Position numbers and translations under genes: made by a program. A DNA stretch of 64,000 bases from Escherichia coli (GTDB lineage: Bacteria; Pseudomonadota; Gammaproteobacteria; Enterobacterales; Enterobacteriaceae), in assembly GCF_017348835.2 (NCBI RefSeq), contig NZ_CP071375.1; one strand, 5' to 3'. The notes beneath the pieces were generated by a model that saw only the letters and a program-made list of their open reading frames with translations, did not search any database and was not told the DNA's origin. This document shows positions 12,854 to 13,059 of this stretch, in pieces (positions within the stretch are counted from its first letter, which is position 1; each line of letters opens with the position of its first letter).

Positions 12854-13059
12854 TAAATTTAATAGATGCTGATGGGGGCTTTCTTAATATACGTCTGGAT
12901 GCTCGCCATTTCGTAGCCCTGTTTTTGAAAGCGCTCTGTCATAATGAGAGTTACCCGATACCTTATTATCAACAGGTAACTCTCAATCTTTAAAAAACGT
13001 CTGTGTTTTTAAATGTGATAAGCCTTATACCTTGAGTACATGGAGAGAATAATCGCTTA

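Follow-up and report, generated by a model that had tools for sequence, protein, structure and literature searches.

The genes ycgN and hlyE (also known as clyA or sheA) converge on a 206-nt spacer in the 64,000-nt stretch of Escherichia coli DNA analysed here (the window). The ycgN stop codon is at 12851-12853 on the + strand and that of hlyE at 13060-13062 on the - strand. Both genes are 99-100% identical to their counterparts in other E. coli genomes, and the K-12 annotation agrees with this arrangement. The spacer contains a perfect inverted repeat which begins 92 nt past the ycgN stop and 75 nt past the hlyE stop, ie within the 3' UTR of each gene. The features referred to below are as follows.

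12392-12853, + strand: ycgN coding sequence, from the open reading frame list and annotations, given with the K-12 start (the RefSeq PGAP start is 12407)
12945-12955, unstranded: left arm of the repeat, TGAGAGTTACC, 11 nt, located by repeat search and 100% complementary to the right arm
12956-12974, unstranded: spacer (loop) of 19 nt between the arms, from the folds, with polymorphic sites at 12962 (C/T) and 12968 (A/G)
12975-12985, unstranded: right arm of the repeat, GGTAACTCTCA, located by repeat search and invariant in eight aligned E. coli sequences
13060-13971, - strand: hlyE (clyA/sheA) coding sequence, from the open reading frame list, annotations and Pfam PF06109 homologues
13071, + strand: peak of a Rho termination region (MG1655 1229494; Adams et al. 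2021, PMC7815308, Supplementary file 2)

The preliminary description of this DNA had reported an inverted repeat between the two genes with 10-bp stems, a loop of about 19 nt and a weak adjacent T-run. The repeat is where it had been placed, and each arm proved to be one base longer, 11 nt rather than 10. Exactly 19 nt were counted between the arms, and the weakness of the T-run is borne out by the tails, AUCUUUAAAAAAC on the + strand and UUAUGACAG on the - strand.

Window positions were converted to MG1655 coordinates via a K-12 record (L001). The MG1655 counterpart of the repeat, at 1229368-1229408, is identical, and the whole 206-nt spacer differs by one base. The MG1655 annotation has no feature between the end of ycgN at 1229276 and the end of hlyE at 1229483. 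The repeat was not discussed in the literature searched, where its sole trace was a widely used clyA screening primer, p79, whose annealing site is inside the right arm. Two other candidate features in the spacer were discarded. A promoter-like site on the - strand (12994-12965) belongs to a type of site that was no more numerous than in shuffled sequence. An open reading frame of 47 codons spanning the repeat (12850-12993) is unannotated, and six of its seven substitutions affect the first or second base of a codon.

Folding and the intrinsic terminator question

The hairpin is predicted to form in the RNA of both strands, with a folding energy of -17.1 kcal/mol (z -6.4) on the + strand, ie in the ycgN transcript, and -19.5 kcal/mol (z -3.6) on the - strand, ie in that of hlyE. 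None of 200 shuffled sequences folded as stably, and the hairpin was kept when the entire 206-nt spacer was folded. The two RNAs differ in detail. On the + strand a weak inner helix of 4 bp forms within the loop, leaving a terminal loop of 6 nt, and on the - strand two extra pairs give a stem of 13 bp with a loop of 15 nt. Five of the 11 pairs in the arms are G-C, ie the stem is 45% GC. The stability of the hairpin is not exceptional by itself: when the 220 nt following ycgN were inspected in other Enterobacteriaceae, approximately 44% of these stretches, counted by eye, had a hairpin no longer than 44 nt with a free energy of -16.3 kcal/mol or below.

It had been suggested beforehand that the repeat could act as a terminator shared by the two genes. 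This stands insofar as the converging pair share a hairpin where their 3' ends meet, but it fails in the intrinsic sense. A scan for consensus terminators between 12300 and 13600 found no terminator-like site. The score of the d'Aubenton-Carafa type (d-score; after d'Aubenton-Carafa et al. 1990) was -54 on the + strand and -34 on the - strand, whereas the dsbB terminator, which is also in the window, scores +35. The sequences 3' of the stem, AUCUUUAAAAAAC (+) and UUAUGACAGAG (-), contain no U-tract. Instead of a compact GC-rich stem with a short loop of about 3-8 nt, there are five G-C pairs in 11 and a loop of 15-19 nt. Termination on the + strand, the one covered from the literature, is Rho-dependent, with a Rho score of 4.70 at MG1655 1229494. 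Because it has no U-tract, a large loop, no site in the scan and strongly negative scores, the ycgN/hlyE hairpin is not an intrinsic terminator. A canonical terminator is also absent from most ycgN orthologues in other genera.

Adjoining the repeat at 12989-13013 is an AT-only mini-palindrome, TTTAAAAAACGTCTGTGTTTTTAAA, which is polymorphic at 13005 (G/A). Its RNA fold is very weak, at -1.4 to -1.7 kcal/mol, and its d-score is -91 to -102; given both values it is not credible as a terminator.

Canonical intrinsic terminators, such as those of dsbB (near window 16045) and of hlyE in Trabulsiella guamensis (record L086), resemble the repeat in being hairpins at the 3' end of a gene. They have, however, a GC-rich stem, a loop of 4-5 nt and six to eight U residues, whereas the ycgN/hlyE hairpin has a stem of 45% GC, a loop of 15-19 nt and no U-run. 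The Trabulsiella hlyE gene is followed by an A-tract, a stem and a U-tract, and nothing comparable is found after hlyE of E. coli. This symmetric textbook terminator, AAAAAGACAACCCGC-loop-GCGGGTTGTCTTTTTTTT, is present at 3440-3490 of L086 and also in a related metagenomic contig (L096, about 2390-2430).

Distribution of the repeat and chance expectation

Of 5426 complete E. coli genomes, 5419 have a match to window positions 12700-13200, with an identity of 95-100%. Across 5410 E. coli genomes the median number of places at which the repeat occurs is one per genome. Sixteen of the 5426 lack it, and an IS-mediated deletion accounts for at least one of these losses. In E. coli TA8571 (record L002, 3132-4328) an IS5-family element, ISEc68, stands in place of the end of ycgN, the repeat-bearing spacer, hlyE and the beginning of umuD. 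Over the 51 nt around the repeat, 4349 of 5412 E. coli records were identical and none had more than two differing positions.

Eight diverse E. coli sequences were aligned to compare the stem with its surroundings. One of the 22 stem positions is polymorphic, C12955T in the top pair, where a G-U pair is retained solely in the ycgN-strand RNA. Two of the 19 loop positions vary, as do about 7% of those in the remaining spacer. With a single stem polymorphism there were no compensatory pairs among the eight sequences, and on these figures no sign of selection on the stem was seen in them.

Among the species compared the repeat is confined to E. coli, where it lies in a young spacer of 34-40% G+C. 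It was absent from all 80 ycgN loci examined from other species and is therefore rejected as part of an ancestral ycgN locus; neither hlyE nor the spacer was found at any of the 80, apart from the initial 70 nt of the spacer (to 12923) in Escherichia sp. MOD1-EC7003. In that strain, which is without hlyE-umuDC, the shared part gives way to an IS1-like remnant, at about 3548-3680 of record L007. In E. albertii, E. whittamii and Escherichia sp. E1V33 the sequence between ycgN and umuD is unrelated and apparently non-coding, and there is no hlyE. This unrelated sequence is 1.0-1.8 kb long in E. whittamii and Escherichia sp. E1V33. When compared with records L003, L005, L006 and L007, hlyE together with both flanking spacers (window 12850-14238) was present in E. 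coli only. The hlyE-umuD spacer also contains, at 14204-14282 on the + strand, a full-length match to the Rfam C0299 sRNA (RF00119; 112.5 bits, E = 6e-23), a known K-12 small RNA candidate.

The idea that the repeat travels with hlyE was rejected. Orthologues of hlyE in Salmonella are at a different locus and homology in their flank ends about 30 nt past the stop codon, and Trabulsiella and distant homologues have unrelated 3' hairpins. An origin from a repeat family or mobile element was also set aside, the repeat being single-copy in each genome and having no phage match. A dispersed palindrome of the REP/BIME type would be present in many copies, and here the median is one per genome. The arm sequence occurs only at this site within the 64-kb window, and matches in a plasmid collection were only to E. 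coli records, some of them chromosome-sized. A search of Rfam 15 at permissive E-values gave no family, the sole overlap being a chance one to mir-2076, with E = 1.5 and 19.3 bits where the gathering score is 90.

Inverted repeats with perfect 11-bp arms and a loop of 3-30 nt were counted over the 64-kb window. Six were observed and 0.53 expected from first-order Markov shuffles, of which 32% contained at least one. They are listed below.

7805-7830: ypjA/minE
12945-12985: ycgN/hlyE
28838-28885: 3' of ldcA, arms ACGCTGTCTCT and AGAGACAGCGT, loop of 26 nt
38487-38523: 3' of treA
50915-50940: 3' of ychF
53363-53390: between convergent ychH and dauA, arms TGACCAGTCAG and CTGACTGGTCA

All six are in intergenic spacers at the 3' ends of genes and, because of this and of the excess of six over 0.53, the class is clearly non-random. 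A single member could still be accidental. The ychF repeat behaves as a normal terminator, with a Term-seq 3' end inside its U-tract. The repeat between ldcA and cvrA, two genes on the same strand, is without a U-tract and is located directly upstream of the cvrA ribosome-binding site.

Rho termination and mapped 3' ends

Adams et al. 2021 (PMC7815308, Supplementary file 2) place Rho termination on the + strand in a region that peaks at MG1655 1229494 (window 13071), with a Rho score of 4.70 and p = 4e-12. The peak falls 86 nt beyond the hairpin in the 3' direction, where it is antisense to the last part of hlyE; its resolution is coarse, reads having been counted in windows of 800 nt. Reads upstream and downstream numbered 103 and 27 in untreated cells, and 169 and 208 with bicyclomycin (PMC7815308), ie the downstream to upstream ratio rose from 0.26 to 1.23. 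The presence of bicyclomycin-sensitive reads beyond the hairpin means that transcripts of the ycgN strand extend past the hairpin before Rho terminates them. Some of the downstream reads induced by bicyclomycin could instead represent new antisense initiation inside the H-NS-silenced hlyE gene. The C/G ratio downstream of the hairpin is 0.84 over 100 nt and 1.13 over 200 nt on the + strand, and on the - strand it is mildly raised, at 1.26 and 1.35, respectively.

The curated Term-seq list of the same study (LB at OD 0.4, LB at OD 2.0, and M63; PMC7815308) has no 3' end between MG1655 1228243 and 1232468. The list is apparently thresholded at about 1000 reads and ycgN is weakly expressed; a weak ycgN 3' end may have been filtered out near that floor. 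The supplements of TERMITe and of SMRT-Cappable-seq mention neither ycgN nor hlyE.

The closest analogue within the window is the ychH/dauA repeat. Its terminator d-scores are -31 and -53, and neither side carries a U-tract. For ychH, Adams et al. 2021 (PMC7815308) give a 'primary' 3' end at 1259119, which falls 5 nt past the stem. This position was obtained from the register of their 61-nt sequences, which was checked on the prs and ychF terminators. A Rho region with a score of 5.78 is reported 236 nt beyond the ychH 3' end, antisense to dauA (PMC7815308). The ychH/dauA repeat is a documented 3'-end hairpin without a U-tract. It shares with the ycgN/hlyE repeat a perfect stem of 11 bp, a position between convergent genes, the lack of U residues on both sides, negative scores, and a downstream Rho region antisense to the facing gene. 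The two differ in that the ychH/dauA hairpin has a loop of 6 nt and a curated Term-seq 3' end, whereas the ycgN/hlyE hairpin has a loop of 19 nt and no curated 3' end.

Possible roles of the hairpin

Because the ychH/dauA repeat, which is also without U residues, has a mapped 3' end and a downstream Rho region, we favour, with middling confidence, an analogous role for the ycgN/hlyE repeat, as a hairpin in the 3' UTR which would cap and protect the 3' ends of Rho-terminated transcripts. The repeat would encode a stable stem-loop lacking a U-tract in the overlapping 3' UTRs of ycgN (ycgLMN) and hlyE, and the stem-loop would not itself release RNA polymerase. On the ycgN strand the polymerase would pass the hairpin, and Rho would halt it farther downstream, in the region antisense to the end of hlyE. 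The 3'-to-5' exonucleases PNPase and RNase II might then trim the transcript to the base of the stem, at about 12988-12992, which would become its defined and protected 3' end. On the opposite strand the hairpin is the more stable of the two, and it would probably do the same job for hlyE mRNA once the silenced gene is switched on.

Stem-loops of this kind are known. Rho-dependent transcripts of E. coli have precise steady-state 3' ends directly after stable stem-loops that lack a U-tract, and these stem-loops guard against PNPase and RNase II (Dar & Sorek 2018, PMC6061677). It is these which the ycgN/hlyE repeat most resembles in its presumed working: it is stable, is without a U-tract or an upstream A-tract, lies in a 3' UTR, and has Rho-dependent read-through just downstream. 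Membership of that class is partly established, by the stable U-less hairpin on both strands and, from published data, by the downstream Rho dependence of the + strand. There are also differences. Members of the class have terminator-like loops, whereas the loop of 15-19 nt in the ycgN/hlyE hairpin is above the size typical of protective or terminator hairpins, which counts against assigning it this function. They also show a precise 3' end after the stem, but none is mapped at the ycgN/hlyE hairpin, and the bias of C over G that is found downstream of them is absent from the ycgN strand over 100 nt.

A neutral palindrome is a less probable explanation, though a serious one. On that account the repeat was generated by chance or slippage in a young AT-rich spacer that came or arose with hlyE in E. 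coli. Its restriction to E. coli agrees with this, E. albertii, E. whittamii and E1V33 being unrelated there, as does its loss from some strains. Polymorphism in the stem is not below that of the flanks, and compensatory changes are absent, but local diversity in E. coli is too low for constraint to be either detected or excluded by this comparison. Equally stable hairpins are common downstream of ycgN orthologues; perfect 11-bp repeats, however, are enriched approximately 10-fold in the window, with all six at gene 3' ends. Similarly, no curated 3' end is reported at the hairpin, but its closest analogue, ychH/dauA, has one that is mapped.

Overlapping bidirectional terminators between convergent genes were reportedly described by Ju et al. 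in 2019. A Rho-independent, collision-type class of such elements between convergent genes has been proposed (Wang et al. 2022 preprint, bioRxiv 10.1101/2022.10.23.513370), in which the ycgN/hlyE hairpin would pause both polymerases, and head-on and trailing collisions would release them with neither a U-tract nor Rho. The ycgN/hlyE repeat resembles that class in lying between convergent genes, in giving a hairpin on either strand and in not looking like an intrinsic terminator. Members of the class are, however, described as Rho-independent, yet read-through on the ycgN strand responds to bicyclomycin. One of the partner genes is also normally silent: hlyE is silenced by H-NS in laboratory K-12 (PMC2156107), and opposing polymerases should therefore be rare. 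The mechanism also requires trailing polymerases, whereas both genes are weakly expressed. We consider it unlikely that the hairpin works in this way.

More speculative still, and improbable in our view, is that the hairpin is a programmed boundary which insulates the horizontally acquired, H-NS-silenced hlyE gene from ycgLMN read-through. It would pause polymerases arriving from either gene and in this way set the level of antisense transcription into hlyE and of hlyE transcription into ycgN, and would couple the toxin to its neighbour by transcriptional interference. It is very doubtful that the repeat is a weak Rho-independent (intrinsic) terminator for one gene or both. The stem is stable, at 11-13 bp, UUAU is immediately 3' of it on the hlyE strand, and the 206-nt spacer offers no better candidate. 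These points are opposed by the empty scan, by d-scores of -54 and -34 against +35 for dsbB, by the loop of 15-19 nt and by the Rho dependence of read-through on the + strand. A DNA operator, in line with the protein-binding palindrome also suggested beforehand and with two 11-bp half-sites for a dimeric or tetrameric regulator that might for example insulate or silence hlyE, would account for the perfect dyad symmetry but is scarcely tenable. A gap of 19 bp between half-sites (30 bp between their centres) would be unusual for a dimeric regulator, the genome has a single copy of the sequence, located at the 3' ends of both genes away from a promoter, and the literature searched names no factor.

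The unannotated repeat is most likely a newly noted case of a known kind of U-less 3'-end hairpin, and an ordinary feature. If the role we favour, in capping and protecting Rho-terminated 3' ends, were confirmed, the hairpin would define where the ycgLMN and hlyE transcripts end, and would add one more case to the rule that Rho-ended E. coli transcripts finish at hairpins without U-tracts. Its importance beyond annotation is small. Some caution is appropriate with hlyE/clyA constructs which include the native 3' flank, as that flank is without a real terminator.

Two features elsewhere in the window were noted in passing. Compared to the near-identical strain PE164 (record L098), there is an extra IS3-family copy of 1.3 kb at 24600-25916, which offsets the coordinates of the two. 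It is 99.5% identical to a copy in PE164 (L098 47646-48963) and apparently interrupts a hypothetical gene that corresponds to L098 23692-25128. Between ymgE and treA, at about 31780-38210 (L098 30466-36892), is a cluster absent from the K-12 gene order, from which it follows that the window is from a strain other than K-12. The products of the cluster are ModD, a methyltransferase, an iron ABC transporter and a receptor of the TonB-dependent type.
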